From Patescibacteria group bacterium (GTDB lineage Bacteria; Patescibacteriota; UBA1384; UBA12157; JAENIV01), in assembly GCA_035288145.1 (NCBI GenBank), contig DATEAX010000028.1:1-52593 (forward strand): 52,593 bases of DNA. The letters are read 5' to 3'. The notes below the pieces were generated by a model. That model made no database searches and was not told the DNA's origin. It saw nothing but the letters and a program-made list of their open reading frames with translations. Of the stretch, positions 4,557-52,593 are shown one piece after another (the stretch's first letter is position 1; each line of letters starts with the position of its first letter). The position numbers and the translations under genes are program-made.

Positions 4557-5039
4557 CTATTTTTCCACATACGTACGTTTTTTAATAGATATTTCCCTAA
4601 TATTTTCGCTGATGTGTTTAAATCTTATATAAATAGTATTTTTTGGTAATATTTTTTTTATTTTTTCTGCCCACTCGATGACCATGATTGCATCTTTCCG
4701 ACCCCAGTAATCCTCAATGCCGGCAGATTTAATCTCTTCGATTTTTTCCAGGCGATAGGCATCTACATGAATAAGTTTCCTAACCATATTGACTACACCT
4801 CGGAGGTGTAGTTTTGGTCGTAAAATGTTATATTCTCTTAGTACTACGAAAGTTGGACTGGTGATTGGCTCTTGGATGCCTAACCCTTTAGCCAGCCCTT
4901 TGACAAAAGCCGTTTTGCCGCTACCTAATTCGCCAATGAGACCGATGACTTCGCCGCCTCGCAAGTTTTTGGCAAAAATTTGTCCAAATTTTTCCGTCTC
5001 GGCGGCGCTAGGTGAAATCATCGCCAAAACTTTCTTCAA
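4557..5039 (-). CDS. tsaE: tRNA t6A biosynthesis ATPase TsaE
   Basis: Walker A GELGSGKT, TSPTF, HVDAYRL. Confidence 0.9.
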   Translation of the reverse strand: MKKVLAMISPSAAETEKFGQIFAKNLRGGEVIGLIGELGSGKTAFVKGLAKGLGIQEPITSPTFVVLREYNILRPKLHLRGVVNMVRKLIHVDAYRLEKIEEIKSAGIEDYWGRKDAIMVIEWAEKIKKILPKNTIYIRFKHISENIREISIKKRTYVEK

Positions 5040-6993
5040 CCGGTCTTTTCTTCTTTAATTTCCAAAGCCGGATAAAAAATATGACCAATAAAACCATCCC
5101 GAGCGCGGTGAGAACTTTGACGAGCTGGAGCCAAAAAGACGATTTCGAGGCCTTAACTTGGGGCAAAATATCCCCGGCCGACGCCACCTGCTTTCCTGAT
5201 TTCGCCTTGCTCGCTACCGAACTGGTTTTTGTCGTCGTGCTCGAACTTTTTGGGGCGGCGGCTTTTGAACTGGCGGTTTTCGTCGAGGAAGAACTTATTT
5301 TTCCCACCGCCTGAATGAGCTTAATATCTTCCAGATTTCTGGGCAAAATCCGCCAAGTATCCCGATACAAATTGACAATCCCGGTGATTTCAAAAATATC
5401 TCCTTTGTGCATTTCCGGTTTCTCAATCCCCGTGGCCGCCTGAATATAAATTTTCGCGCGGCCCGTTCCGTCATCAATATAAAAAGTATTCCCCGAAGTT
5501 TCCACCACCGTGCCAGTAATTTTGACTAAATAATTTTCGTAATTTCTGATTTCCCCGGTTTTGATTTCAATCGGTTCGGAATTCAAAGGGATATCTTCTT
5601 CCTCAACGATGTTCTCCTCATCCCCGCCGATTTCTGGGGGAACGATAACATTCGCCTTGGCGGGGGTCGCCTTGGTTGTCCACTGCCATAAATTATTAAA
5701 CCAGGCCCAAGTCCAGCCCTCCTCCCCTTCAGAAAAATTTGTCTCGTCAGCCAACAGACCGTCGGGGAAAAATAGTTTGACCGAATCACCGGTGTTATTA
5801 AGAGCAATGCCTGTTTGAGGACGATAAAATACCAGCCAACTTTTGGCAGGAATCACCGTGCCGTAAGGAATAAGATAATCTTCAAGTAAAAAGTAGGACA
5901 AATTAACGGGAGAAGCCAGCGGGTTATAGAGCTCAACCCACTCGCCCTCGTTGTCCGTGCCCAGAGGATTAGGTAAGAGCTCGGATAAAATCACACTCTC
6001 GCCCGTCGAAGCCCAAAGACCAATTCTTTCCGCTCGGGCTTTCTCTTCAATCGCCTGCCAGGCGGCGTTTTTTAAAACAAAATTATCGGTATCATAGAAA
6101 CTCGCCAGTCCCCGTTCCATCAGCTCAATATTAAAAACCTTGTTTTGAAAAATGATAATTGCCAAAGTCCGGCCAAAAGGATCGAACTGTTCATCCTCTG
6201 ATTTAGAGATAATTAAGTCAACACTTTTCCCCTGGAGAGTCTGAGCCGTATAATCCTTCGCCGGCAAATACATACTCTCGCTGGATTCTGGGCAGTCAAC
6301 GGCCAGCAATCTGACATATGAAGAAAGATCGCTAAGACCCGAGACCTTGATCGTATCGCCGTCAATCACCGAAGTCACCGAGACCGTCCGAATCATGGCA
6401 TTTTCCAAGTCCACCAGCGCCAAGACTTCCGGAGGATATTCGGGAATAATCAATTTACTGTTCGGCGCGCCCGGAGTTCCTCCCTTGACATAGCTTTTTT
6501 GCCAGTTGTCGTCGGAGGAAATTAGGGGATCAATTTTCTCCCAGGAGATATTGTCTCCCGGGTCGGTGGTCCATGTAAATGTTTCGGTGTAAGTACCATC
6601 CTCATTAGTCAGAACGATGGCATCGGCAGGATTGGCAAGAATCATCGATATCTCAACCACCGGGGCTATTACCGCCGGCCAGTGCTCTTTGAAAGCCGTT
6701 TTGTCACGGGCCAAGATTAAAAAATCTTTCGGCAAAATCACTGCCGCCGCATCAGTGATTGTTTTGTTGTCAAAAGTCCAATTATTTAAATTGACGGATG
6801 TCGTGCCCTTATTATAAAGTTCAACCCATTCTAAACCAGTTTCCGGCGTCGGGGCATTGGCCATCACCTCGTTAATGACGACATTCGAATCAACGAGCGG
6901 ATCACTCTCTGCCGCCAAAACTTTTTGAGTCCCTAAAAGAAAGAAAATAAATCCGATAAAAACAAATAACAAAAGATACTTTATTTTCCCCAT
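5008..6993 (-). CDS. secreted, C-terminally membrane-anchored nuclease: LTD - SNase (thermonuclease) - LTD - OB-like domain
   Basis: signal peptide; VVINEVMANAP..EWVELYN (lamin-tail domain) twice; VIDGDTIKV..VRLLAVDCPE..GRTLA..ERGLA (SNase); S/T/K-rich linker and terminal TM helix. Confidence 0.8.
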   Translation of the reverse strand: MGKIKYLLLFVFIGFIFFLLGTQKVLAAESDPLVDSNVVINEVMANAPTPETGLEWVELYNKGTTSVNLNNWTFDNKTITDAAAVILPKDFLILARDKTAFKEHWPAVIAPVVEISMILANPADAIVLTNEDGTYTETFTWTTDPGDNISWEKIDPLISSDDNWQKSYVKGGTPGAPNSKLIIPEYPPEVLALVDLENAMIRTVSVTSVIDGDTIKVSGLSDLSSYVRLLAVDCPESSESMYLPAKDYTAQTLQGKSVDLIISKSEDEQFDPFGRTLAIIIFQNKVFNIELMERGLASFYDTDNFVLKNAAWQAIEEKARAERIGLWASTGESVILSELLPNPLGTDNEGEWVELYNPLASPVNLSYFLLEDYLIPYGTVIPAKSWLVFYRPQTGIALNNTGDSVKLFFPDGLLADETNFSEGEEGWTWAWFNNLWQWTTKATPAKANVIVPPEIGGDEENIVEEEDIPLNSEPIEIKTGEIRNYENYLVKITGTVVETSGNTFYIDDGTGRAKIYIQAATGIEKPEMHKGDIFEITGIVNLYRDTWRILPRNLEDIKLIQAVGKISSSSTKTASSKAAAPKSSSTTTKTSSVASKAKSGKQVASAGDILPQVKASKSSFWLQLVKVLTALGMVLLVIFFIRLWKLKKKRPVEESFGDDFT

Positions 6994-41751: not shown

Positions 41752-41896
41752 ATTGTATCCTGACCAATACTCTTTAATCTTGACAAAAAACTTTTGATGA
41801 CGCAAGACCGGCAAAAAGCTATGGGAATATCATCCAGTCATAACTGCCGGCAGAAATGGCGGTTTTGTGTGATATAATTCTTATTAGTTAAAGGGG

Positions 41897-42748
41897 GTGA
41901 ACCATTTGTCACGCCAATGCCAGCGTCCTGGTTGCCCAACTCCGATTGCCGAATTTGTCGACCCGGAAGTCCTCTATTGTGGTTATTGCCAGTATGATTT
42001 GATACGCGGCATCCCGGATCTGGTCAGCAGCTATCTTGATGGCCGTTCCCTGCCAGATAAAGACATCCGTTTCCTCTTCAACCACTTAAAAGTAGAGACA
42101 AAAGAAGAGTTTTGCCCGGCTCGAGAATTCTCCTTGTACCTCGGATTCCACAAGGCCTACTTTAGCAAAACCCTTCAAAAGGATTGGCTCTCGGGCAAGA
42201 AAGTCAAAAGAAGCGACCCTCGGTGTCCGAAGAGACGCATCATCTGGATGATTCCTTTTGAGGAAACTGTCAGGATTTTGGACATCGAGCGCAACTGGAT
42301 TACTGTTTATCAAGCGGCCAAATTGGGCGTGAAACACCAGACACTGCTCCACTATGTCCATTTGGACTACTTTGGACCGACGCACCAGCACTATACCGGA
42401 GCATTGATGATTTCCCGGTCATTTCTTCCCCAATTTAAAGAGCGATATGCCGCAATTGTCAAGGAAAGAAGGAAGCTGAAGAGTCGTCGCTATTGGCAAA
42501 AAGACCGCTTAACTCCCGAGATAATCGGCTCGGTGCTCGGAGTTTCGGGGGGATCGGTCAGCACCTGGATAAGAAAGGGATGGCTACCGGCCAAGCGCTT
42601 CGGCCACTGGTGGCTGATTAAAAGACCGGATTTCCGGGAATTTCTCGAGCGGCTCGCCCGTGGCGAATTTTCCGTCCGTCCTCTGCCACCTGATAAGTGT
42701 CGAGCAATTCTGGAGTCCGCACCTTGGAAAAACCTCCCGATGTCTTAG
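41897..42748 (+). CDS. putative DNA-binding regulator: N-terminal Cys4 zinc ribbon plus three tandem excisionase/MerR-type (HTH_17-like) winged-helix modules
   Basis: CQRPGC..YCGYC; three modules each ending in W/h..I.r..h..h pattern, best one LTPEIIGSVLGVSGGSVSTWIRKGWLPAKRFGHWWLIKRPDFREFL; TTG 41906 has better RBS spacing than GTG 41897. Confidence 0.65.
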   Translation: MNHLSRQCQRPGCPTPIAEFVDPEVLYCGYCQYDLIRGIPDLVSSYLDGRSLPDKDIRFLFNHLKVETKEEFCPAREFSLYLGFHKAYFSKTLQKDWLSGKKVKRSDPRCPKRRIIWMIPFEETVRILDIERNWITVYQAAKLGVKHQTLLHYVHLDYFGPTHQHYTGALMISRSFLPQFKERYAAIVKERRKLKSRRYWQKDRLTPEIIGSVLGVSGGSVSTWIRKGWLPAKRFGHWWLIKRPDFREFLERLARGEFSVRPLPPDKCRAILESAPWKNLPMS

Positions 42749-42778
42749 CCCCGCACCATTTGGTGCGGGGCTTTCGTT
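42747..42778 (+). terminator. intrinsic terminator after the regulator gene
   Basis: AGCCCCGCACCA-TT-TGGTGCGGGGCT then TTCGTT. Confidence 0.65.
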
Positions 42779-42785
42779 AAAAAAA

Positions 42786-42814
42786 TTGACAAAATTTTCC
42801 GTCTTCGTTACATT
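42786..42814 (+). promoter_or_regulatory. sigma-70-type promoter of the lipoprotein/peptidase operon
   Basis: TTGACA 42786-42791, 17-nt spacer, TACATT 42809-42814. Confidence 0.55.
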
Positions 42815-42818
42815 AAGG

Positions 42819-42864
42819 GGCTTTACCCTGAAACCCGCGGGTAAGGCCTTAGCCAAGCGGGTTT
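42819..42864 (+). promoter_or_regulatory. 5' leader with two mutually exclusive hairpins
   Basis: hairpin 1 GGCTTTACCC 42819-42828 / GGGTAAGGCC 42839-42848; hairpin 2 AAACCCGC 42831-42838 / GCGGGTTT 42857-42864. Confidence 0.4.
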
Positions 42865-42914
42865 AGCATATTGAAAACAGATTCTGGCCAGTCATCAGAA
42901 AAAGGAGGAAACCA

Positions 42915-43475
42915 ATGAAAAAGCTGATGGCCGTAGTCGTGCTTTTGGCAATCGTGGGGTTAATTTACGCCTGCGTTGCCAAAACAGAAAAGACCATTCC
43001 GGAACCTTCGGGATTCCGGCTCTCCCGAACTCCCCAGGCAAGCATCGATTTGGTCCAAGACAGGGATTCTCAAAACATCGCGATTTCCTGGGTGAAAGAT
43101 GGGCAAGGCAGAATTGCCACGGTTAATGAGCCGATTGGCGAAGAGGTGACGATTGGCACCCCGCAGAATGAGGATTCAGAGCGGGGCGTTTCGGTTAACA
43201 TCAATCTGCCCAAAAGGGAAATCCAGAAGTACTGGCTCTGTCTTGAGGGCAAGAAGGGTCAGAAGTGCCGACTTGAAACCAGCTTTCTTGACGCAAGGGG
43301 TCGAATCTGGCCGAAAAAGCCGATGGGATTCTCTTTCCGGCTCCATCGTGAAGGCAAGGTCTTCCGGGCTTACCTTCTGCTCACCTGCAATCCCAAAAAA
43401 ACACCATCTCAAGCAATGACCTTATGGGAAGTTGCCAAAAAGGATGTTTTTCCGGGTCATGGAGGCAAGCGATGA
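42915..43475 (+). CDS. putative lipoprotein (186 aa), unknown family
   Basis: signal peptide ending GLIYAC; AGGAGG RBS; stop overlaps next start (ATGA). Confidence 0.65.
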   Translation: MKKLMAVVVLLAIVGLIYACVAKTEKTIPEPSGFRLSRTPQASIDLVQDRDSQNIAISWVKDGQGRIATVNEPIGEEVTIGTPQNEDSERGVSVNINLPKREIQKYWLCLEGKKGQKCRLETSFLDARGRIWPKKPMGFSFRLHREGKVFRAYLLLTCNPKKTPSQAMTLWEVAKKDVFPGHGGKR

Positions 43476-45424
43476 AAAGGCTCTTCATTCTCCTTGTCCT
43501 CCTTGCCGAGCCGACCTTTGGTTCGGAAACTTGGCATCTTCCGCCGGAAAACTGGGGACGGCTCCATATCCCCGCGGATGAAAACTACTCGACCGCGGGC
43601 CAGCTTTCTTCGACCATCGCCCAAGGCACGCGGGTGGGGGTTTTCGGCCGGGCCGGGGCAAATCTCGATTATGGCGGCTGGCAGCTCAAAACCACCAGCT
43701 TCTGGCTACCAAATTCCGCCACCGGCGAAGGAGAAGAATTCTGGCAGGCCGTCGGCAATGTCTATCTCAAACCAGGGGGATTTCCCCTGGCTTTGACCGG
43801 CGCGGGAGCAACTGATTACCCGACCACTGCGATGTGGGCAACCCAGGGCTATGCCGTGCCGCCGCTCTTCGGTCTTCCCCAAGTAAGCCAAAAGGGCAAC
43901 TTTTATCCTTACGCCGCTGACGGCAAGACCACCATTGCCCAAAATGGTTGTCTTCTCTGCAGCATCCTTGCCGGGGCCAAGCGGATCAACCGTTGCCCGT
44001 GGAGCATTGAATTCTACAACGACTGGCTGGCGCTAAACCACGGCTTCAATGTCCGCGATATCCGCTGTCCGATTGCCGCCAACCTGGTGGGATTCCAGTA
44101 CATCGGCGAGTTTAAGTGGAACATCGCGACGATTGAGAAGTATCATGCCCGCGATTGGCATGAGGTCGGTAAAATGGGAGTCAAGCGGCGAAACGGCAAA
44201 TGGGGCACCCACTTTGTCGGCATCTCGCCCGGAGTGATTTTGCCCGGTAAGATTTTGGGGATGATGGACCCAGCTTGCCGGTCGGATTACTTTAACCAGA
44301 CGCGCTATCGGCCGCGCCGGATTAAGGTTTTCGCCCCGGTCGTTCCCCAGGACAGCGCCAGCTTGGTGAGCATCCCCTATCTTTGGCGGCAAAACGGCTG
44401 GTGGCTCGGGACGCCGGTTTATCCGCCTGACTGGGGAACAATTGCCTCGGCTTCGGAGAATTCGTCTCCGGATGTTTCGTCGCGGCCAGCGGCCAATCAA
44501 TTGGCCGGCGCAACCCTGGCAAGTTCCGGTCTGGCCCGGCTCGATGCTTTTACCAATCAAAACGTCTTTCTCGAAAGGGTCGAGACGCCGCGGTTTATTT
44601 TGACCCCGGAAAATTCCGAGGAGGTCGCCGAAGGAGCAACTCTGGATACCGATTTCGGCAGTGCTCCCGAAGACGATGATTCACTCGAGATTGACGAGGA
44701 AGATTTGCTCTCCGAGCCGCCGCCGGACGATCATTCAGTCATGGGACTGCTGGCCGCACCGCAGGGTCGATACATCTTCTTCCTTTCCGGCCCGCCCAAT
44801 GCTCCTTACCAAGTGACTTGCTGGGGGATGGATAACCTCGGGAAGCCGATGGCGGACAAAATCCTTGCCGGCGTCCTTGACGCAAGCGGCAAAGCAAGTA
44901 CCTTTGTGGATTTTGACCCAGGTATCACCGCCTTCAAACTGGGTACTATCCGTCAAATGAGCGTCGGCTCCGAAGTGAGTTTCTCTTCGGAAGTGACCGA
45001 AACCTCGGCGACGGAGTTTTCCGTAGAGAATGCCGACCGAAGCGCCGGCGTAAAAGTCCTTTCATTGGCCGAGCCGTCAATCGGCGCGACGGTCTGGACG
45101 CGGGGCAAGGTAATCTCGCTTGCACCAGAGATTATTGTCGAAGCAACCGAGGTCAAAATCCTTGGAAGCGGTCTTCCGACCATCAAACCGCTCGGGATTG
45201 CCGGAAAATGGCCGACGCTTGCCAACGGACTGCTGGCAAAAATTGCCGGCAAAGTTGCCACCGTCAATGGTTCAACCGCGATTATCGATGATGGCGGAGA
45301 AATCCTGACATTGACCGCGGTCGACAAACCGCTCAAAACCGGGGACTTTGTGACTCTCGTCACCGTTCTTCGGGCAAACAAAATCCTCCGGCCAAGACCC
45401 GGCTCAATTCAAATCTTGGATTGA
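43472..45424 (+). CDS. secreted protein with papain-like Cys-His-Asp domain (C39/NlpC-P60-like order) and C-terminal OB-like module
   Basis: signal peptide MKRLFILLVLLAEPTFG; QNGCLLCSILAG, GKWGTHFVGI, MMDP; acidic linker; tail KIAGKVATVNGSTAIIDDGGEILTL resembles the tail of the 5008-6993 nuclease. Confidence 0.6.
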   Translation: MKRLFILLVLLAEPTFGSETWHLPPENWGRLHIPADENYSTAGQLSSTIAQGTRVGVFGRAGANLDYGGWQLKTTSFWLPNSATGEGEEFWQAVGNVYLKPGGFPLALTGAGATDYPTTAMWATQGYAVPPLFGLPQVSQKGNFYPYAADGKTTIAQNGCLLCSILAGAKRINRCPWSIEFYNDWLALNHGFNVRDIRCPIAANLVGFQYIGEFKWNIATIEKYHARDWHEVGKMGVKRRNGKWGTHFVGISPGVILPGKILGMMDPACRSDYFNQTRYRPRRIKVFAPVVPQDSASLVSIPYLWRQNGWWLGTPVYPPDWGTIASASENSSPDVSSRPAANQLAGATLASSGLARLDAFTNQNVFLERVETPRFILTPENSEEVAEGATLDTDFGSAPEDDDSLEIDEEDLLSEPPPDDHSVMGLLAAPQGRYIFFLSGPPNAPYQVTCWGMDNLGKPMADKILAGVLDASGKASTFVDFDPGITAFKLGTIRQMSVGSEVSFSSEVTETSATEFSVENADRSAGVKVLSLAEPSIGATVWTRGKVISLAPEIIVEATEVKILGSGLPTIKPLGIAGKWPTLANGLLAKIAGKVATVNGSTAIIDDGGEILTLTAVDKPLKTGDFVTLVTVLRANKILRPRPGSIQILD

Positions 45425-45433
45425 GCCATTTGC

Positions 45434-45466
45434 CCCCGCACCATTCTTTGAAGGGTGCGGGGTTTT
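45434..45466 (+). terminator. intrinsic terminator after the peptidase-like gene
   Basis: CCCCGCACC / GGTGCGGGG stem then TTTT. Confidence 0.7.
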
Positions 45467-45478
45467 CAATTACACCAC

Positions 45479-45509
45479 TTGACTTTTTTTTGCCATAATG
45501 TGATATAAT
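45479..45509 (+). promoter_or_regulatory. extended -10 promoter placing the TSS at or next to the ATG of 45516 (leaderless)
   Basis: TTGACT 45479-45484; TG-A-TATAAT 45501-45509; ATG at 45516; 12-mer TGTGATATAATT also at 41868-41879. Confidence 0.5.
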
Positions 45510-45515
45510 TAAAAT

Positions 45516-46028
45516 ATGAAACAACCAATTCTAAAAATCATTCTCATCATCCTCGCGGTCGCGATTCTCGGAACCGGGGTGGCCTACGGCACCATCAACT
45601 TGGTTAAAAGGAAAGAAAATCCCCCTTCACCCACCCCAACGCCGAGCATCACCCCCCGAATATCGCCGACCTCGCCGGCAACCACACCCACATTTGATAC
45701 GACGCCAAAATCCGCTGAAGTATTGACTGCCGCTTTACTCTGGGCAAGACGCGACGAGCTGGTGGGACAAACCGTCATTGTTGAAGATGTCGTTACTTTT
45801 CTTTCCAGCTGTCCGACAGTGGAAGGCGTCCGGCCCGAACAATGTTCGACCGGTCTTTATCTTGGAAGCCAGGAAGACAACAACTTTGCTCTCTATAAAA
45901 ACGGTAAGACAATCACCTGTCGAGGCATGCCCGCCACCTGTGAGGGTTTTGCCAAAGACCAAAAAAAGCGTTTTTCCGGGACTTTGGTCAAAAGCCAACT
46001 GACCACCTATTATCTTAATGTTCTCTAA
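45516..46028 (+). CDS. membrane-anchored protein with P/T/S linker (170 aa), unknown function
   Basis: N-terminal TM starting at residue 5, PSPTPTPSITP linker, Cys-containing globular domain. Confidence 0.6.
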   Translation: MKQPILKIILIILAVAILGTGVAYGTINLVKRKENPPSPTPTPSITPRISPTSPATTPTFDTTPKSAEVLTAALLWARRDELVGQTVIVEDVVTFLSSCPTVEGVRPEQCSTGLYLGSQEDNNFALYKNGKTITCRGMPATCEGFAKDQKKRFSGTLVKSQLTTYYLNVL

Positions 46029-46059
46029 GCCGCCTTTTTTCTAATTTACGGGTAAAAAC

Positions 46060-46088
46060 TTGACAGGGCCTTAAAAATCCTCTATACT
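46060..46088 (+). promoter_or_regulatory. sigma-70-type promoter of 46145-46567
   Basis: TTGACA 46060-46065, 17-nt spacer, TATACT 46083-46088. Confidence 0.55.
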
Positions 46089-46144
46089 ATCCTCAAATCC
46101 GAGCGATCGGCTTCTCCCGCAGGTTCACAGGGAGGTGATTTCCG

Positions 46145-46567
46145 ATGACACTCGGCGAGGCGAAAGAGATTTTGAAGGGGTATTACCCTTTCAGAATCCA
46201 AAGAAAACGATTGCGTCTTAACCTAGACGCGCTGGCCAAAGAAACAAACTACCAACCGCTGGTAGATGGCCCAACTCAAAAGAGCTGGCCGATATCAGAC
46301 CTGATCCCCAACGAATCGCCGGATAAGCAGGCACGATTTCGTGCCGCTTTCCGGACGATCTGGGAAGCGGAAAAACTGAAGGTGGAAGGGTTGTGGGACG
46401 ACCCCTGGTGGACCGATCTCAAGGTAGAACCGTTTTCGAAGCGGCAGACCTCCGAGATCTATCTCTGGGTTTCCAAGAGTTTGTCCCTATCACAAATCCG
46501 AATCCTCGAGGACACCCTCGAGCAAATTGCCCCTGAAGCAGTTTGCTTTGAAAGGGTGGCCGCATAA
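46145..46567 (+). CDS. orphan protein (140 aa)
   Basis: GGAGGTGA RBS 6 nt upstream; own promoter and terminator. Confidence 0.55.
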   Translation: MTLGEAKEILKGYYPFRIQRKRLRLNLDALAKETNYQPLVDGPTQKSWPISDLIPNESPDKQARFRAAFRTIWEAEKLKVEGLWDDPWWTDLKVEPFSKRQTSEIYLWVSKSLSLSQIRILEDTLEQIAPEAVCFERVAA

Positions 46568-46586
46568 CCGAACTTGCGGGAGTTTC

Positions 46587-46630
46587 TGCCCCGGTGTTGT
46601 TTTCGCCCAACTCAACCGGGGCATTTTTTT
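46587..46630 (+). terminator. intrinsic terminator
   Basis: TGCCCCGGT 46587-46595 / ACCGGGGCA 46615-46623 then TTTTTTT. Confidence 0.7.
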
Positions 46631-46668
46631 AAGTATTTAATATTTGAAGTCCGTTTGAGTCCGGAAAT

Positions 46669-47289
46669 TTAATCCAATGGCGTCGGGGTGGGGGTGGGTG
46701 CGAAGAGACAGGTGATTGGGTCCTTTATTTCACCTGTAGATTCATTGCCCGATGGATCCCGAAATTTTACCCAAACCGTTTTGGTGGAAAAGGGGTTGCC
46801 GCAGGGCGAGCCGCCATAGCGGTCATCAGCCAGATTCCAATTCGTCCGGGTGGTTTGGTATGCCTCGTATGGGCTCCATTTGGTCGTCGGAGGGTTGCCG
46901 GCAAGATAATTATTGGTAAATTTCATCGCCTGAACCGTGCCGTTGTTATCAGTAGCGCTTAAATTCAAAGTCACCGCGGTCCCTCCTGTTACTTTCGGAG
47001 CATCATTATTGATTTTGATGGTGCCGGTCGGCGGGGTAATGTCCCCAAGCACTTGGGTCTCCAGGGTGTTGCTTAAGATATTGTGGCTTCCCTGACTATC
47101 GGTATAATTTAGACTAGCGGTATTTTGAATTGTGCCAATAACCTCGGCTTTAAAAACCTGGGTGGAAATAAAGATGCCGGCAGCAAGGAGTGTCAGCCCA
47201 TACAAGCCAAAAATAATTTTCTGCCGTTTAGCCAGACGGTGAAAAGTTTTTTTAAGCCAGGCGATAATTTTTTTGGTCATTGGACTCAA
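46669..47289 (-). CDS. membrane-anchored surface protein (206 aa), Ig-like/DUF11-like beta domains
   Basis: N-terminal TM; beta-rich; PTPTPTP tail; 10-nt gap to the LVIVD gene. Confidence 0.55.
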   Translation of the reverse strand: MSPMTKKIIAWLKKTFHRLAKRQKIIFGLYGLTLLAAGIFISTQVFKAEVIGTIQNTASLNYTDSQGSHNILSNTLETQVLGDITPPTGTIKINNDAPKVTGGTAVTLNLSATDNNGTVQAMKFTNNYLAGNPPTTKWSPYEAYQTTRTNWNLADDRYGGSPCGNPFSTKTVWVKFRDPSGNESTGEIKDPITCLFAPTPTPTPLD

Positions 47290-47299
47290 TCTCCCCTAT

Positions 47300-49570
47300 T
47301 TAATTTGCCGTTACCTGAAAAGTGACTGTAATCGTGCTCCCCGGTTGGCCCGTGGGGGCAATGCTTTGAAATTGGAAACCGCTGAAATAAAGAACATTGT
47401 TGTTAAGAGTAAAACTGTCGTCGCCAGCGGCTTCGGTGACGGTCGAGCCATTGACTTTGGTCTGACCCGAAACATAGGTGGAACCGGCAGGGACGGCATC
47501 AGCTAAACTTAAGGCCGTCATCGTCTGGCTGGTGGGGTTGGTAATCGTTAAAGTGTAGGCGATTGTTCCGCCGCGGCTGACCGATGAGGGTCCGGTTTTG
47601 ACAAGTTGAAGCGGGGTCGGGGTCGTCCCGACTGAAGCAATGTCTATCAAATAATTATCGTCGGTTAAGAAGGCGTAACCCCCGGAAGCGGTCACGGCGC
47701 GGACAACACCGACAACACCGCCAGGATATGGCAATGTCAGAAAAGCCGTCTCTTGGGGAGCGGCGGGATTGCTAACATTGAAAATCTGGAGACCCTTAGT
47801 GGTGTTGCTGGAGATGGCGACATAAGCCGAAGTTCCCGAGACATATACCCCGAACGCCGAGTCCTTAGTCACTGTCCTGGAAACCTGCTGAAGAGCGCTG
47901 GGATTGCTGATGTTCAAGATATAGAGACCGGCGGTTCTGGCCGCCACATAGGCAAGGTTTCCGGAGATAACCACATCGTTGGCAAAATTAGCGGTCGTAA
48001 ATGAACTCAATATTCGTGGAGCGGCGGCATTGGCAACATCAATGCTCTGAACCGCGCCGGTGCTGGTGCCGCTACCATCAGCAACAATTGCCGTATTGCC
48101 GCTTACTGCGACGGAAAAAGCCTGTCCAGGGGTATCCAGCTGACCAAGAATACTGGGAGCGGCGGGATTACTGACATTGGCAATCACCAAACCGGCCAAA
48201 TAATCGGCAATGTAGGCCTTGCCCGAAGCCACCGTTACCCCGTAGCCGGAATCGGGCAAGTTCAGAGTTCCTGTAAGTGTTGGGCTAAGGGGATTTTGGA
48301 TGTTGATGATTTTGAGAGTTTGATTATCCGTGGCGTAAAGGTAATTGCCCTCAATGGTCAAGTCGTTGACTGCTCCGAGGGTGAAAGTGGCGATATGAAC
48401 CGGGGCATTGGGCTGACTGATATTGTAAATCCAAATGTCGGCCTTGTTGCCGCTAGAAACATTGTTCACTGCGTAAAGATAAGACCCGCTTATGGCAACC
48501 GCCGGCACATTAATCACCTTGCCTAAACGCCCCAAGACCGATGGACTCGAGGGATTGGTGATATTAATGGTTACCAGACCGCCTTGGCCGCTGGCAACGA
48601 CTGCAAACCCGCTGACAACGGCTGGCCGGCCGCGCAAGAAGCCGGTGAGAGCCACAAAAGAAGCGCTCTGGGGCAAAGCCGGGTTAGAAAGATTAAAGAT
48701 TTCCAAACCGTTATTCGTCGTAATGCCAGAATATTCGGTCATAAAAAGGTAGCTGCCGAGAACGGTCAAACCAGAGGCCGCCCCTCTGGTAATTACCCTG
48801 TTGACCAATTGGGGACTGCTGGGATTGGCAATGCTTACAACAAGAAGTCCGCCGGTAGAAATGTTGGCATCGGCGACATAGGCATAGCTACCACTTAAGC
48901 TAACATCCATGGCGACGGCGGCGGCCAGCGTTCCTAAAACCCGGGGAGATGCGGAATTGCTGACATCAGCGGTAATCACGCCGGTCGTATCGGCAATCAC
49001 CGCGGTTGTTCCGGTAATGGCCGATGCCCGGGCAAAGTTCGGCGTATTTAAAGTGCCGAGAACACTGGGAGCGGCAGGATTGCTAATGTTGATGATTGCC
49101 AAACCGAGGGTGCCGATACTCACATAGGCCTTGGTCCCGGAAATGGTTATCCCGTTAATTGCCTCTCCCAAAGTTAGGGAACCCGCCACGACCGGATTAG
49201 CGGGATCGGTGACTTGAAAAACCTTAAAATTCTTATCAGCCCCGACATAAGCGTAATTTCCCGAGACAGCGATAGCAAGGAAGATGGTCGAATCAAAAAA
49301 ACTTTTAACAAGAATCTTGCTCGGTGTGCTTACATCAGCGATATGGAAACCAAGCGATGAAGTCGTATAAACGTAATTTCCGGCTATCGCCACTTGATAG
49401 GTCTCGCCGCTCATCGCCGGCGTTTTACCAATCCACTGGGCGGTTTGGGCTTCGGCTTTGGGAACAACTTTACCCGCAAAGTTAAAAGAAAGCACACTTG
49501 TCAGCAAGAGCGACAAAACTATCCCTTGGAGAACTTTAATAATGATAAATCCCCGTTTGGCCTGTTTCAA
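47300..49570 (-). CDS. secreted LVIVD-repeat beta-propeller protein with C-terminal DUF11-type domain
   Basis: signal peptide; ~40-aa repeats (SGNYAYVA.., GL.I.NISNPAAP, GTL); tail GGTIAYTLTITNPTSQ..AVPAGSTYVSG. Confidence 0.8.
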   Translation of the reverse strand: MKQAKRGFIIIKVLQGIVLSLLLTSVLSFNFAGKVVPKAEAQTAQWIGKTPAMSGETYQVAIAGNYVYTTSSLGFHIADVSTPSKILVKSFFDSTIFLAIAVSGNYAYVGADKNFKVFQVTDPANPVVAGSLTLGEAINGITISGTKAYVSIGTLGLAIINISNPAAPSVLGTLNTPNFARASAITGTTAVIADTTGVITADVSNSASPRVLGTLAAAVAMDVSLSGSYAYVADANISTGGLLVVSIANPSSPQLVNRVITRGAASGLTVLGSYLFMTEYSGITTNNGLEIFNLSNPALPQSASFVALTGFLRGRPAVVSGFAVVASGQGGLVTINITNPSSPSVLGRLGKVINVPAVAISGSYLYAVNNVSSGNKADIWIYNISQPNAPVHIATFTLGAVNDLTIEGNYLYATDNQTLKIINIQNPLSPTLTGTLNLPDSGYGVTVASGKAYIADYLAGLVIANVSNPAAPSILGQLDTPGQAFSVAVSGNTAIVADGSGTSTGAVQSIDVANAAAPRILSSFTTANFANDVVISGNLAYVAARTAGLYILNISNPSALQQVSRTVTKDSAFGVYVSGTSAYVAISSNTTKGLQIFNVSNPAAPQETAFLTLPYPGGVVGVVRAVTASGGYAFLTDDNYLIDIASVGTTPTPLQLVKTGPSSVSRGGTIAYTLTITNPTSQTMTALSLADAVPAGSTYVSGQTKVNGSTVTEAAGDDSFTLNNNVLYFSGFQFQSIAPTGQPGSTITVTFQVTAN

Positions 49571-49599
49571 ACTCCCTCCTTTTAATGCGGTCTATATTT

Positions 49600-49627
49600 A
49601 TTATAAACCGACATTTCATTCTGTCAA
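49600..49627 (-). promoter_or_regulatory. sigma-70-type promoter of the LVIVD operon
   Basis: minus strand TTGACA (49627-49622), 16-nt spacer, TATAAT (49605-49600). Confidence 0.5.
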
Positions 49628-49635
49628 GTAAAATT

Positions 49636-49670
49636 TTAAAAAACAATCCCCATCCGTATGGATGGGGATT
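49636..49670 (-). terminator. intrinsic terminator of the phosphatase-like gene
   Basis: AATCCCCATCC 49646-49655 / GGATGGGGATT 49660-49670, T-run on the minus strand. Confidence 0.7.
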
Positions 49671-50104
49671 TAACCGCCGTGCTTGAGGGAAAAATTGCGC
49701 CAAAAGTTCTCTTGACTGCCGGTTTCAACCGGTCCCGCTTTCTCCATCACCTGATGGAACGAAAGATTCCTTTCGCGAATCAGCCACAAGCCAGCCATCA
49801 GATTCGTCCTGCCCTTACCATAACGGCTGTGAATAAGAACAGGATGCTTCAGAAGTATCTCGTGGTAAAGAATTTCAAAAAACTCTTCAAGTTCGCGGCA
49901 AGACGGCGTATCACCCTCTTTAAGATAAAGGGTATAATGGGCGATGCACCGACGTTTGATCTCTTCTTCCGTTTCTTTAGAGAGCGGCTCTAAAGAGATA
50001 ATCGCTTCAATCCCTTTATCAAAAAGAAACTTGATATCCTCTGCTTCAGGCATCTCTGACCCGGCCAAGACACCTTCCTCGAACCATTGAAATCGGTCAT
50101 GCAT
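49670..50104 (-). CDS. dual-specificity/PTP-fold phosphatase homologue with Ser in place of the nucleophile Cys
   Basis: VLIHSRYGKGRTNLMAGLWLI aligns to the HCxxGxxR(S/T) P-loop; Ser codon AGC at 49826-49828. Confidence 0.7.
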   Translation of the reverse strand: MHDRFQWFEEGVLAGSEMPEAEDIKFLFDKGIEAIISLEPLSKETEEEIKRRCIAHYTLYLKEGDTPSCRELEEFFEILYHEILLKHPVLIHSRYGKGRTNLMAGLWLIRERNLSFHQVMEKAGPVETGSQENFWRNFSLKHGG

Positions 50105-50206
50105 TCATCTCACCCCCTTTCACCCCTTTGTATCTTGTTATCCGTTAGAATAGCACAGTTTCCTCCGAATTGCCAGAACAAATCCGTGATAAAAACGGTC
50201 GTCTTA

Positions 50207-50245
50207 CAAAAAGAGCCCCCACACCTTGCAAGCAGGGTGTGGGGG
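50207..50245 (-). terminator. intrinsic terminator closing the vWA operon
   Basis: CCCCCACACC 50216-50225 / GGTGTGGGGG 50236-50245; minus strand continues CTCTTTTT. Confidence 0.75.
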
Positions 50246-50250
50246 ATAGA

Positions 50251-51147
50251 CTAGTCGGTAATCGCCAGCGGCCGCATCGCTCTTTCGACGATGGGCCCTA
50301 CCCCCGGGGAAACCGGGAAAGTGAACTCATCGCGCCTTGTCCACGTCGGCTCCTTAACCAGAAACTCGACGTGAAGCCAGGGAGCTGTCTGATGGAGGAA
50401 AACCACCGCCAGCTCCTTTTCGCCAGCGTTCTCGGCAATGGCAATCGCCCGCTCAAGGCAGACATCGGCGTTCGGCTGGTCCTTTACGACCACGACCTTG
50501 GCCGGATAGATATTCGGCAGGATCGGGGTGAAGGTCTCCGCCAGCCAAAGTCCGGAGCTGGCGGTCTTGCCGGAGAAATGATTGACCGCCTCTTCGGCCA
50601 GCTTGAAATGGGCCACAGTTCTCGTCCTGTCCATTTGCTGGGCCTGCGTCGGCAGCATCATTTCCCGGCTCGACCGATTAACTTCGCCCGCCAGCTGGTT
50701 GGTCTTTTCGATGAGCAATTGGCCGTAATGGCGAGAATCCTCGTCTTGGCGGTCAATATTGCCTAAAACGGAGACAACCTGTCCGCCGGTGCGGGGAAAA
50801 CCGGTACCCATAAGGTAATTGAACTGAAATTCATCCTCATTGGGTTTGAGGGAAATCGCCCGATTCATCGTCCCGAGATCGTCGATATAGAGCCCGCGCA
50901 GACTGGTCGGGATTTCCGATGCCTCCTCAATCGTTGTCTCGTGTCCTTCGGCGTCAATCCCCATATGCCGGTAGCAACTGGCGAGAAAAATCGCCCGGTC
51001 CCGCTCCGGGTCATAGATATCGGTCTTGCCGATTATCTCCCGTACACGAACCGCCTTCAGCGTACCGGCTTTCTCGAGACACCGGGCCTTTTCCATGCCG
51101 CCGTCGTGAGCGCCGCCGTCAATCATCGCAGGTGTTCTTGTTTGCAT
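50251..51147 (-). CDS. soluble protein of unknown family (298 aa), last gene of the vWA operon
   Basis: ATG 51147 is 6 nt after AAAGGAGGTGA (the track start 51165 lies inside that RBS); no motif recognised. Confidence 0.6.
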   Translation of the reverse strand: MQTRTPAMIDGGAHDGGMEKARCLEKAGTLKAVRVREIIGKTDIYDPERDRAIFLASCYRHMGIDAEGHETTIEEASEIPTSLRGLYIDDLGTMNRAISLKPNEDEFQFNYLMGTGFPRTGGQVVSVLGNIDRQDEDSRHYGQLLIEKTNQLAGEVNRSSREMMLPTQAQQMDRTRTVAHFKLAEEAVNHFSGKTASSGLWLAETFTPILPNIYPAKVVVVKDQPNADVCLERAIAIAENAGEKELAVVFLHQTAPWLHVEFLVKEPTWTRRDEFTFPVSPGVGPIVERAMRPLAITD

Positions 51148-51161
51148 CTTATCACCTCCTT

Positions 51162-51890
51162 TCATCCATCAATGGCCGTAAATGTTACCGGAAATTGCTT
51201 TTGAGACCAGCTCTTGAAAAACTGGTTAAAGATTCTCCGGAGCCGTTCGTGATCTTTAAGATGCACGGCCTGTTTTTTGTTGACCAAGCCCGGATACCAG
51301 TAAATCTTGATGTTTACGGGCGGGCTATTCGGTCTTGGACAAACCTTCGCCATCTCCTCAAGAATCTCGGAGTCGCTGCGCGCTTTAAGATAAGCCCTCG
51401 TCAGAGTCAACTCCTTCGAAGATTGGAGAAGATCGGAAATTACCACCAGATGCCACTTGCCGGTACCGGACTGGGTCAAAACCTCGTTTACAAAGTCGAT
51501 TACCTCAAGAAGCGGGGTACTGCCAACCCTGGGATTCTCGGCAAAGGCCCGCTCAACTTTGACCACCATCTCCTTGACCTGACTTTGTCTAGATTTCCAG
51601 GCCGGGGGAGAAATCTGGAGGGTATGTTGAGCAACGATCCGATAACAATAGGCCTCGCCGGCGGGAGCAAAGAAAATCATTTTCCACTTGGCGCCGGAGG
51701 AATACTTCAGGGCAAAATCTCTGGCCGCCTGCTTAGCATGATTTAAGGCGGCATCGGCTTGAACTACCAAGCTGTGGCTATTGTCGACGATCAAATACTC
51801 CTCCTGATAAGTATTACCAGTGTCCATCGGCATGCACCCAGGGAGAAAAAGCCAAAGGGTTAGAAAAACCATCTTTCTCAAGGCTTGCAT
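51162..51890 (-). CDS. vWA-domain lipoprotein with complete MIDAS motif
   Basis: lipobox LFLPGC; YLIVDNSHSL (DxSxS), GSTPLL (Thr), HLVVISD (Asp); ATG 51890 with CAGGAGGTGG RBS. Confidence 0.75.
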   Translation of the reverse strand: MQALRKMVFLTLWLFLPGCMPMDTGNTYQEEYLIVDNSHSLVVQADAALNHAKQAARDFALKYSSGAKWKMIFFAPAGEAYCYRIVAQHTLQISPPAWKSRQSQVKEMVVKVERAFAENPRVGSTPLLEVIDFVNEVLTQSGTGKWHLVVISDLLQSSKELTLTRAYLKARSDSEILEEMAKVCPRPNSPPVNIKIYWYPGLVNKKQAVHLKDHERLRRIFNQFFKSWSQKQFPVTFTAIDG

Positions 51891-52578
51891 CGTCACCACC
51901 TCCTGTATTCCCGTCCATCGAGCATTCGGCAATCCGGAAGCCATATCTTGCTAAAGTTGGACGAAGCTCCTCGACGGTCGTCGTCAAAGTGTGATTGATG
52001 AGTCGATTGACCTCCTCGGCTGAACGGCGGATTCTTTCTTCCAGCTCGCCAATCCGACGCTGAAGATGCCGCTGGATTCTCTCTTGATGTCTGACTCTTT
52101 CAGCCCGCTCCAGCTCGTTGTGATCCTGCTGCATCTTTGCCCGAAAAGCGTTAAACTTCTTAATCTCGCTCTCGATACCTCGGCTAAGGGTGATATCCCT
52201 AAGCTCTTGGGCGATTTTTGTCAGGATCTTATCTGTCTTATCATCAATCGCCTTGGCCTTATCAAGAAACTTGGCCGCCAAGTAACTAATGACCGGAATT
52301 GGGGCAATGTTGGCAATGCCAAGAGACAAACTCGCGGCATCAAAACCCTCTAAACCGCCAATGCCGGCACGTAACAGACCAAGAGCCGCGGTAATAATCA
52401 AGAATATACTACCGCCGACGATTCTTAACCGGGCGAGTTCGTGGGCTCCCCAGATTAAAGCGACAACAACACCGAATGTCAGCAGATAGGGCAGGGCGAC
52501 AAAAGAACCTTCAGTACCCCGGTAGGCCTCGGCAATCACCAAGAATGTCAAGCTGCTGTCAATGCTCGCAAGGAACAT
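51814..52578 (-). CDS. membrane protein with three to four N-terminal TM helices and a long charged coiled coil
   Basis: hydrophobic first ~105 aa, then KILTKIAQELRDI..ELERAERVRHQERIQRHLQRRIGELEERIRR; 3' end overlaps the vWA gene by 77 nt. Confidence 0.6.
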   Translation of the reverse strand: MFLASIDSSLTFLVIAEAYRGTEGSFVALPYLLTFGVVVALIWGAHELARLRIVGGSIFLIITAALGLLRAGIGGLEGFDAASLSLGIANIAPIPVISYLAAKFLDKAKAIDDKTDKILTKIAQELRDITLSRGIESEIKKFNAFRAKMQQDHNELERAERVRHQERIQRHLQRRIGELEERIRRSAEEVNRLINHTLTTTVEELRPTLARYGFRIAECSMDGNTGGGDDASLEKDGFSNPLAFSPWVHADGHW

Positions 52579-52593
52579 CGCTCCAACCTTAAC

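Follow-up and report, generated by a model that had tools for sequence, protein, structure and literature searches.

A two-gene operon of a Patescibacteria contig encodes a predicted exported clan-CA cysteine peptidase and a tethered partner related to one of the enzyme's own domains

Introduction

In Staphylococcus aureus, the staphostatin genes lie downstream of the staphopain protease genes (scpAB and sspBC; peptidase family C47 with inhibitor family I57), and the third residue of the staphopain catalytic triad is Asn. Spi, a free-standing inhibitor in Streptococcus pyogenes, is cytoplasmic and homologous to the prodomain of the protease SpeB. The staphopains are secreted papain-fold peptidases co-transcribed with small β-proteins, the cytoplasmic staphostatins, that are their specific inhibitors, and in S. 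pyogenes the inhibitor gene likewise lies beside the protease gene and is co-transcribed with it (PMC3462683). The C10 proteases Bfp and Btp of Bacteroides are also exported papain-fold enzymes, and they are co-transcribed with the staphostatin-like proteins Bfi and Bti, which are 116-138 aa long, predicted to be β-proteins, and exported, some of them as lipoproteins; the inhibitor genes lie either upstream or downstream of those for the proteases, and the btiZ stop codon stands 14 bp before btpZ (PMC3462683). Domain N5 of the mycobacteriophage Lysin A is predicted to be a cysteine protease and has HHpred matches to a C39-like peptidase and to S. aureus cysteine proteases; a C39/staphopain-like module also serves as an endolysin catalytic domain (PMC3314691). 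Here we describe a two-gene operon at positions 42915-45424 of a 52,593-nucleotide contig from a Patescibacteria group bacterium (DATEAX010000028.1 of assembly GCA_035288145.1), the whole of which we refer to as the window. The operon encodes a predicted membrane-tethered protein of 186 aa, which we call the partner, followed directly by a predicted exported cysteine peptidase of 650 aa.

The molecular basis of attachment, feeding, and killing by bacteria of the Candidate Phyla Radiation (CPR; Patescibacteria) is largely unknown, and very few candidate effectors have been named; our literature searches found no earlier description of such a pair in CPR bacteria. We propose that the partner may be the cognate inhibitor or immunity protein of the exported peptidase, a reading to which we assign a probability of roughly one half. 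If the partner does inhibit the enzyme, it would represent both a new inhibitor family and a new route of self-protection, one in which an internal C-terminal domain, rather than a prodomain, has been duplicated. If the enzyme cleaves peptidoglycan, it would be a cellular equivalent of the C39-like module known from phage lysins. The hypothesis built on the pair is compact and open to tests by expression, and, as a rare family, the pair will not explain CPR biology at large.

Results

Organization and conservation of the gene pair

What is the conserved unit at this locus? Gene 1 (42915-43475, + strand) is an open reading frame (ORF) encoding the 186-aa partner, and gene 2 (43472-45424, + strand, counted from the ATG at 43472) is an ORF encoding the 650-aa multidomain enzyme. 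Both had been called in a first-pass annotation of the sequence, made by a model without database searches, together with the ATGA at 43472-43475 in which the stop codon of gene 1 overlaps the start codon of gene 2. We confirm these assignments and find, in addition, that a Shine-Dalgarno sequence, GGAGG, stands 6-7 nt 5′ of each start codon. The first copy (42904-42908, + strand) precedes gene 1; the second (43461-43465, + strand) lies within the last codons of gene 1 and, with the ATGA, makes up the coupling junction (43461-43475, + strand). An alternative start for gene 2 at 43424 would bury its signal peptide and is unsupported by the homologues.

Neither protein matches an entry in Pfam, NCBIfam, PHROGs, PADLOC (including its anti-phage defence profiles), or the sequences of the Protein Data Bank (PDB). 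In a word-indexed protein search the only matches were near-identical fragments belonging to the same population, and the family alignment used as a query added none. Relatives came instead from a HMMER scan of 1.84 billion cluster representatives, in which 22 proteins scored at E≤1e-3 and 13 of these at E≤1e-10; about ten of the matches are full-length relatives with 25-43% identity, and the remaining weaker matches share the C-terminal tail only. Back-translation of a conserved tail motif, WPEMANCLL (WPTLANGLL in the window), gave a pattern with no match in the GTDB genomes and with matches in two JGI metagenome contigs.

DNA was available for nine independent loci: the window, L002/L003, L004/L005, L006, L007, L008, L009, L010, and L011/L012. 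At every one of them a gene for a protein of 162-197 aa lies directly 5′ of the large gene on the same strand, with a gap of −4 to +1 nt, and the co-occurrence expected of the functional pair proposed in the first-pass annotation thus extends to all nine loci. In most loci a GG-rich, Shine-Dalgarno-like motif stands inside the last codons of the partner gene. In L010 the annotated start of the large gene is wrong; the true ATG overlaps the TAA stop of the partner gene and restores the signal peptide. The other neighbours differ from locus to locus and include purL, ABC transporter genes, TypA, a peptidyl-prolyl isomerase, a Leu-dehydrogenase-like gene, a P-type ATPase, and a mechanosensitive channel. 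Since these neighbours are unrelated across loci, the conserved unit consists of exactly these two genes. In most loci the unit also has a higher GC content than its flanks; the difference is clear in four (0.557 against 0.454 for the surroundings in the window, 0.526 against 0.464 in L004, 0.523 against 0.457 in L006, and 0.441 against 0.386 in L011) and weak in L007. The excess either reflects a composition peculiar to these proteins or hints that the unit has moved horizontally.

The enzyme has a predicted clan-CA catalytic domain

The catalytic domain, as delimited from the domain model and Foldseek, spans residues 127-295 of gene 2 (43850-44356, + strand). The first-pass annotation had singled out the motifs QNGCLLCSILAG, GKWGTHFVGI, and MMDP as a possible papain-like Cys-His-Asp set, and all three are present in that order. 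Four residues are invariant in all 11 family sequences that contain the catalytic domain. Three of these are Cys160 (codon 43949-43951, + strand), the predicted nucleophile; His247 (44210-44212, + strand), the predicted general base; and Asp266 (44267-44269, + strand), the putative third member of the triad. The fourth, Gln140 (43889-43891, + strand), stands 20 residues before Cys160 and is a candidate for the oxyanion-hole residue. Cys163, the second Cys of the QNGCLLCSILAG motif, is not conserved in the family alignment.

AlphaFold2 models of the full 650-aa protein and of residues 125-295 alone reached predicted local distance difference test scores (pLDDT) of 77.9 and 88.6 and predicted template modeling scores (pTM) of 0.76 and 0.87, respectively. 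In both models Cys160 lies at the N-terminus of a helix (residues 160-172), His247 lies in a β-strand (244-257), and Asp266 ends the next strand (261-266; strands assigned by DSSP), which is the papain arrangement. When the isolated domain was compared with the PDB using Foldseek, staphopains A, B, and C were the top matches (1pxv, 1cv8, 8oig, and 1y4h; probability 1.00, template modeling score (TM) 0.50-0.57, ~180 aligned columns). The next matches were Alr0975 (a primitive phytochelatin synthase), AvrPphB, a Josephin-type clippase, interpain A, and IdeS/Mac-1, all of which belong to clan CA. The corresponding search with the full-length protein was dominated by OB-fold matches and returned a weak cysteine-protease match (3isr, probability 0.15). 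On the strength of the modelled fold and the order of the catalytic residues, we assign the domain to the clan-CA cysteine peptidases, with a staphopain/C39-like fold. Of the outcomes by which the first-pass annotation would have been refuted, namely the lack of a papain-like fold, variable Cys and His residues in homologues, and separate occurrence of the two genes, none was observed.

At the level of sequence the assignment to a known family does not follow. The staphopain profile (C47) gave no Pfam match at E≤10 in the 11 members, and a profile search of PDB sequences was empty. Peptidase_C39_2 (PF13529) touched one of the 11 members at E 0.034, far below its gathering threshold, and one member, from candidate division CPR3, is named "Peptidase C39-like domain-containing protein" in UniRef. 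The top 50 PDB fold matches name no NlpC/P60 or CHAP protein, and the Pfam and NCBIfam scans contain none. Of the hydrolase classes suggested in the first-pass annotation, the papain-like and C39-like ones thus stand and NlpC/P60 does not. We also note a family member of 521 aa (P0012) that lacks the N-terminal sandwich and the helix bearing the catalytic Cys but retains the His, the Asp, and the C-terminal modules; a truncated gene call could account for this, as could a pseudo-enzyme.

Does the fold point to a cell-wall substrate? In the Foldseek library of viral structures the best matches (E 5.6e-5, TMq 0.62) were equal to or slightly better than the staphopains, and they are named Peptidase, phi29-gp13-like morphogenesis hydrolase, tail tape measure, Lysozyme, and Endolysin. 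A fold equal to that of phage lysin peptidase modules, in a window rich in cell-wall genes (PBP2, LCP, and M23), is what one would see if the enzyme were a housekeeping autolysin that acts on the cell's own peptidoglycan during growth, division, or pilus insertion, with the partner as its local regulator. We consider this improbable: an enzyme central to the wall should occur in many relatives, and the scan of cluster representatives found only ~13 clusters at E≤1e-10. Moreover, the unrelated neighbours at every locus, together with the GC excess over the flanks in most, suggest an accessory, possibly mobile, module.

A small envelope protein encoded next to a papain-fold hydrolase also brings to mind contact-dependent amidase effectors of the type VI or type VII secretion systems (T6SS, T7SS) and their immunity proteins, and the first-pass annotation had described the layout as the usual one for such pairs. 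This description does not hold: a partner-first order is not usual for them, and no secretion-system genes occur nearby, either in the window or at the other loci. One fold match to a CdiA-CT/CdiI complex was recorded at a low probability (0.38). On the other side, the would-be effector bears a predicted Sec signal peptide and gave no NlpC/P60, CHAP, or Tae-like match. We therefore strongly disfavour a contact-dependent effector of this kind.

The partner is related to an internal β-domain of the enzyme

The product of gene 1 is a putative β-protein whose mature part comprises ~134-169 residues across the family. A lipid anchor or an uncleaved signal anchor is predicted to fix it to the cytoplasmic membrane, on the outer face. 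In the window, the signal/lipobox segment MKKLMAVVVLLAIVGLIYAC (42915-42974, + strand; Kyte-Doolittle peak 3.05) ends in LLAIVGLIYAC and fits the PROSITE PS51257-type lipobox pattern with Cys20. The window protein thus agrees with its earlier description as a lipoprotein, but a lipobox is found in only two of the nine partners, whereas a strongly hydrophobic N-terminal segment is found in all nine; as judged from these N-termini, lipoprotein status is not a feature of the partner family. The partners are also the fastest-evolving component of the system, with a mean pairwise identity of 17% compared to 37% for the catalytic domain, and leave-one-out hidden Markov models (HMMs) recognise seven of the nine.

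A comparison of profiles connects the partner to the enzyme. Partner residues 95-160 (43197-43394, + strand) align by hhalign with residues ~423-484 of the peptidase, in the C-terminal half of its acidic middle β-domain, with a probability of 89.4%, an E of 2e-6, and a score of 42.3 over ~60 columns. The aligned regions of both proteins end at a conserved DP. In controls, reversed alignments scored 12.2 and 13.5, the maximum of 200 column shuffles was 16.7, and the maximum of 200 block shuffles that keep local strand patterns was 26.7. A global alignment of partner and middle domain is co-linear over the full length (E 3e-6) and confident in the C-terminal half only. Similarly, plain HMM searches matched the reciprocal regions weakly, always at the same positions. 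We also considered a derivation of the partner from the N-terminal β-sandwich, which would be the prodomain-like arrangement known from Spi, and rejected it (hhalign E 0.33). These profile comparisons identify the partner family as a divergent, ancient, and fast-evolving paralogue of the acidic middle β-domain of the enzyme.

This kinship invites a more specific proposal than inhibition as such, namely a CPR-specific weapon that works by self-mimicry. The internal acidic β-domain would regulate or auto-inhibit the peptidase, its tethered duplicate would protect the producer in trans, and the released enzyme would cut the wall or surface proteins of a host to give an epibiont access. We regard this as doubtful at present. 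If it were true, it would establish a new immunity principle, in which an internal C-terminal domain of the effector gives rise to the immunity factor, and it would provide a concrete host-attack effector for CPR bacteria.

The same kinship could also be taken to mean that the partner is a substrate. In that case the enzyme would be a dedicated processing peptidase, in the manner of C39 leader peptidases or of LapG and LapA, whose cuts in the partner, and possibly in its own acidic loop, would set free or mature a surface factor. The C39-like annotation and the weak Peptidase_C39_2 match are in keeping with this idea, as are the shared DP at the end of the homologous regions and the disorder of the acidic loop, which could be a cleavage site. 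What speaks against it is that we found no double-glycine leader, no fusion to an ABC transporter, and no ABC exporter on the same strand nearby: the protein has no ABC domain, and the ABC genes that L004 has near the pair are on the other strand, and no other locus has them. Likewise, with partner sequences this variable, no conserved cleavage site stands out other than the DP. A processing role is, in our estimation, quite unlikely.

Operon boundaries and remaining modules of the enzyme

A sigma-70-like promoter candidate, TTGACA-17-TACATT (42786-42814, + strand), matches the consensus at 10 of 12 positions and is the sole such site in 42600-45700; as the number of such sites is not above that in shuffled sequences, its support is its position alone. 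Two GC-rich or terminator-type hairpins, each followed by a U-run, bracket the pair in RNA folding. The left one, GC-rich (42747-42772, + strand; −24.7 kcal/mol, z −6.2), is the terminator of an upstream helix-turn-helix (HTH) gene and the left boundary of the two-gene unit; the right one (45434-45462, + strand; −21.0 kcal/mol, z −3.3) is the right boundary. The promoter-like site and the flanking hairpins thus delimit a two-gene transcription unit, and the pair is a self-contained, translationally coupled operon. The two hairpins have the stem CCCCGCACCATT...GGTGCGGGG in common, and the 12-mer that forms it matches three times, including the reverse-complement arm, compared to 0.35 expected, and nowhere else in the 52.6-kb window. 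We considered whether the hairpins are the ends of a longer duplicated cassette and rejected this, since their likeness is confined to ~35 nt.

How is the rest of the enzyme built? A putative signal peptide occupies residues 1-17 (43472-43522, + strand), a short hydrophobic N-terminus with a predicted cleavage site TFG|SE. The first-pass annotation had proposed a cleavable signal here, and the homologues agree with it: those with a true N-terminus conserve the hydrophobic start, carry AXA-like sites at the same place, and continue with a W-x-[LIV]-P motif. The N-terminal β-sandwich (residues 18-126; 43523-43849, + strand) has ten β-strands in the AlphaFold2 model and is fast-evolving, with a mean pairwise identity of 20.6%. 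The catalytic domain is followed by a mostly disordered linker (residues 296-351; 44357-44524, + strand; pLDDT <50 at 292-297 and 322-351) and then by the acidic β-domain, for which DSSP assigns eight strands (residues 352-484; 44525-44923, + strand). The net charge of this domain is −9 to −20 in all nine proteins, and within it lies a disordered poly-acidic loop (residues 396-413; 44657-44710, + strand; pLDDT <50).

The protein ends in a tandem OB-fold tail (residues 485-650; 44924-45421, + strand), for which Foldseek gave matches at probability 1.00 to S1 D3-D4, HIN-200, RPA, RMI, Stn1-Ten1, and YgiW. The acidic disorder and OB-like tail of the first-pass annotation are thereby both borne out. 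This tail is also found in surface proteins of large size that have many CarboxypepD_reg domains. A further claim, that the tail is shared with a nuclease encoded at 5008-6993 of the window, survives in a reduced form. That gene (− strand) encodes a 661-aa protein, probably a surface nuclease, with two lamin-tail domains, a staphylococcal-nuclease domain, and a DUF5689-like OB end. BLASTP aligned it with the peptidase tail at E 0.008 over 53 aa, hhalign at E 0.0026 and a probability of 11%, and hmmsearch at E 3e-4 among 307 ORF segments. The likeness appears real but weak, and it amounts to one OB-like unit of ~65 residues and not to a shared tail.

A variant of the pair from the Rifle aquifer (L001; ENA ERZ28563625 scaffold_149087) differs from window positions 42615-45605 by two substitutions and two deletions. 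The first deletion removes 36 nt in frame from the linker (window 44385-44420), which indicates that the linker is tolerant of change. The second removes 19 nt (~44940-44958) and splits the peptidase gene into a 483-aa ORF and a separate 149-aa ORF for the OB tail; either the gene has truly decayed or been split, or the assembly is in error at this point.

The surrounding window and its organism

The window encodes SecA, SerRS, class-I LysRS, AlaRS, PBP2, LCP, M23, and PolX. Its SecA is 75-78% identical to proteins from Patescibacteria metagenome-assembled genomes labelled Berkelbacteria or Saccharibacteria, and the labels Patescibacteria and candidate division CPR3 attach to two other carriers of the family, P0011 and P0026. 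Every carrier with a taxonomic label is therefore a member of the Patescibacteria (CPR).

The GC content of the window steps from ~0.43 (1-41800) to 0.50-0.60 (41800-52593). The boundary, near 41814-41897, falls between a PAP2 gene and a gene for a 283-aa protein (41897-42748) with a zinc ribbon and an HTH_17/excisionase-like domain, which matches the PADLOC mad1 profile at E 5.5e-4. The step could reflect an island, a mobile element, or an assembly join. No integrase was found in the window near it. An island integrated at the tRNA-Phe gene was rejected: there is no integrase, and the high-GC region lies at the 5′ side of the tRNA gene and not at its 3′ end.

Directly 3′ of the pair, beyond the terminator hairpin, a gene at 45516-46028 (+ strand) encodes a signal-anchored protein of 170 aa in which a Pro/Thr-rich linker is combined with a globular, Cys-rich part; it has no family match and was not found beside the pair in other loci. 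Further along are genes for a 206-aa anchored protein with a weak Big_7-like match (46669-47289, − strand) and a 756-aa LVIVD-repeat/DUF11 surface protein (47300-49570, − strand), which together with the pair make up a surface-protein cluster in the high-GC part of the window. Large secreted proteins also neighbour the pair in L006 (4439-5539) and L011 (7189-12121), namely a pilin-like protein with N_methyl and LTD domains, a GHL15-like protein of 967 aa, and a protein of >1373 aa with CBM_5_12. These surroundings suggest that the two-gene unit tends to sit among surface and secretome genes. Finally, we note that a gene at 49670-50104 (− strand), adjoining ORFs without a family, encodes a 144-aa dual-specificity phosphatase of the "polymorphic toxin system DSP-PTPase" type (PF22785, E 8e-11).

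Discussion

What does the partner do? Fast evolution is common among inhibitor and immunity proteins. The very fast evolution of the partner, the coupling of the two genes, and the precedent of operons that pair a protease with its inhibitor are the reasons why we favour an inhibitor or immunity role. We propose the following mechanism. Coupling of the genes would lead to roughly equal amounts of both proteins, and the partner would bind the enzyme about one-to-one as it emerges from the membrane, keeping it inactive beside the producer's own envelope. Once released or engaged, the enzyme would cleave peptide bonds in the envelope of another cell; its targets could be peptidoglycan stem peptides and cross-links or, alternatively, surface proteins, and its β-sandwich and OB modules would supply target binding.

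Several observations weigh against this proposal. Searches of the nine partners against the inhibitor families of Pfam (staphostatin I57, chagasin I42, and others) gave no match at E≤10, and a PDB profile search returned noise. Most of the mature partners are basic, like the catalytic domain (+2 to +11), and this offers no hint of docking between them. The fold of the catalytic domain cannot tell a protein substrate from a peptidoglycan peptide, because proteases and phage lysins score alike. With respect to the organism, the epibiotic lifestyle is an assumption, and the family is rare and hence no general CPR trait. The gene purL is unusual in CPR genomes, and one carrier without a taxonomic label, the 231-kb contig of L004, has purL and other genes atypical for CPR. 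Finally, the domain to which the partner is homologous is non-catalytic, and this suits docking or tethering as well as it suits inhibition.

The last point deserves to be spelled out. A partner that serves as a membrane tether or docking subunit, without inhibiting anything, would pair with or replace the acidic β-domain and so hold the peptidase on the surface. The enzyme itself lacks an anchor, a hydrophobic N-terminal one is present in all nine partners, the basic partners face a strongly acidic middle domain, and the OB tail is common to large surface proteins. We examined the charges for complementarity between the partner and the acidic domain and found the idea unsupported. The net charges of the two co-vary positively (Spearman +0.76, n=9, a small family in which co-variation statistics are weak), and a correlation of this sign counts against both the tether and the inhibitor. 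Furthermore, a partner identity as low as 17% is less expected of a purely structural anchor, and the known operons of this layout encode inhibitors. We think it possible but unlikely that tethering is all that the partner does, and we retain the inhibitor or immunity role as the preferred reading.

How does the pair compare with known systems? The staphopains provide the best PDB fold match of the catalytic domain. In contrast to the staphostatins, the partner is encoded upstream, is translationally coupled to the enzyme, and carries a predicted export or anchor signal in all nine loci; in contrast to the staphopains, the enzyme has four extra modules, has Asp266 as the third triad residue, and shows no membership of the family at the sequence level. 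The Btp-Bti pairs of Bacteroides are closest to the window pair in layout and localisation. There, however, the peptidases belong to a different family (C10, SpeB-like; interpain and IdeS are weak fold matches only), the hosts are diderm, and no kinship of the inhibitor to an internal domain of the enzyme has been described. SpeB and Spi do offer such a kinship between inhibitor and protease, but the homologous part in our pair is a β-domain C-terminal to the catalytic domain and not an N-terminal prodomain.

Likewise, gene 2 differs from the phage lysins in encoding a cellular protein, predicted to be exported by Sec, that has a dedicated partner. With the Tae/Tai pairs of the T6SS the window pair shares the combination of a papain-superfamily hydrolase with a small, envelope-located, putatively protective protein; it differs from them in its Sec signal, the lack of a T6SS, a topology that is neither NlpC/P60 nor CHAP, and a partner that is encoded first. 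The way in which the pair works probably resembles that of the known operons in which a protease is made together with its cognate inhibitor. What is new here is the combination of a clan-CA family that is uncurated in Pfam, NCBIfam, and PHROGs with a partner family that stems from an internal domain of the enzyme itself.

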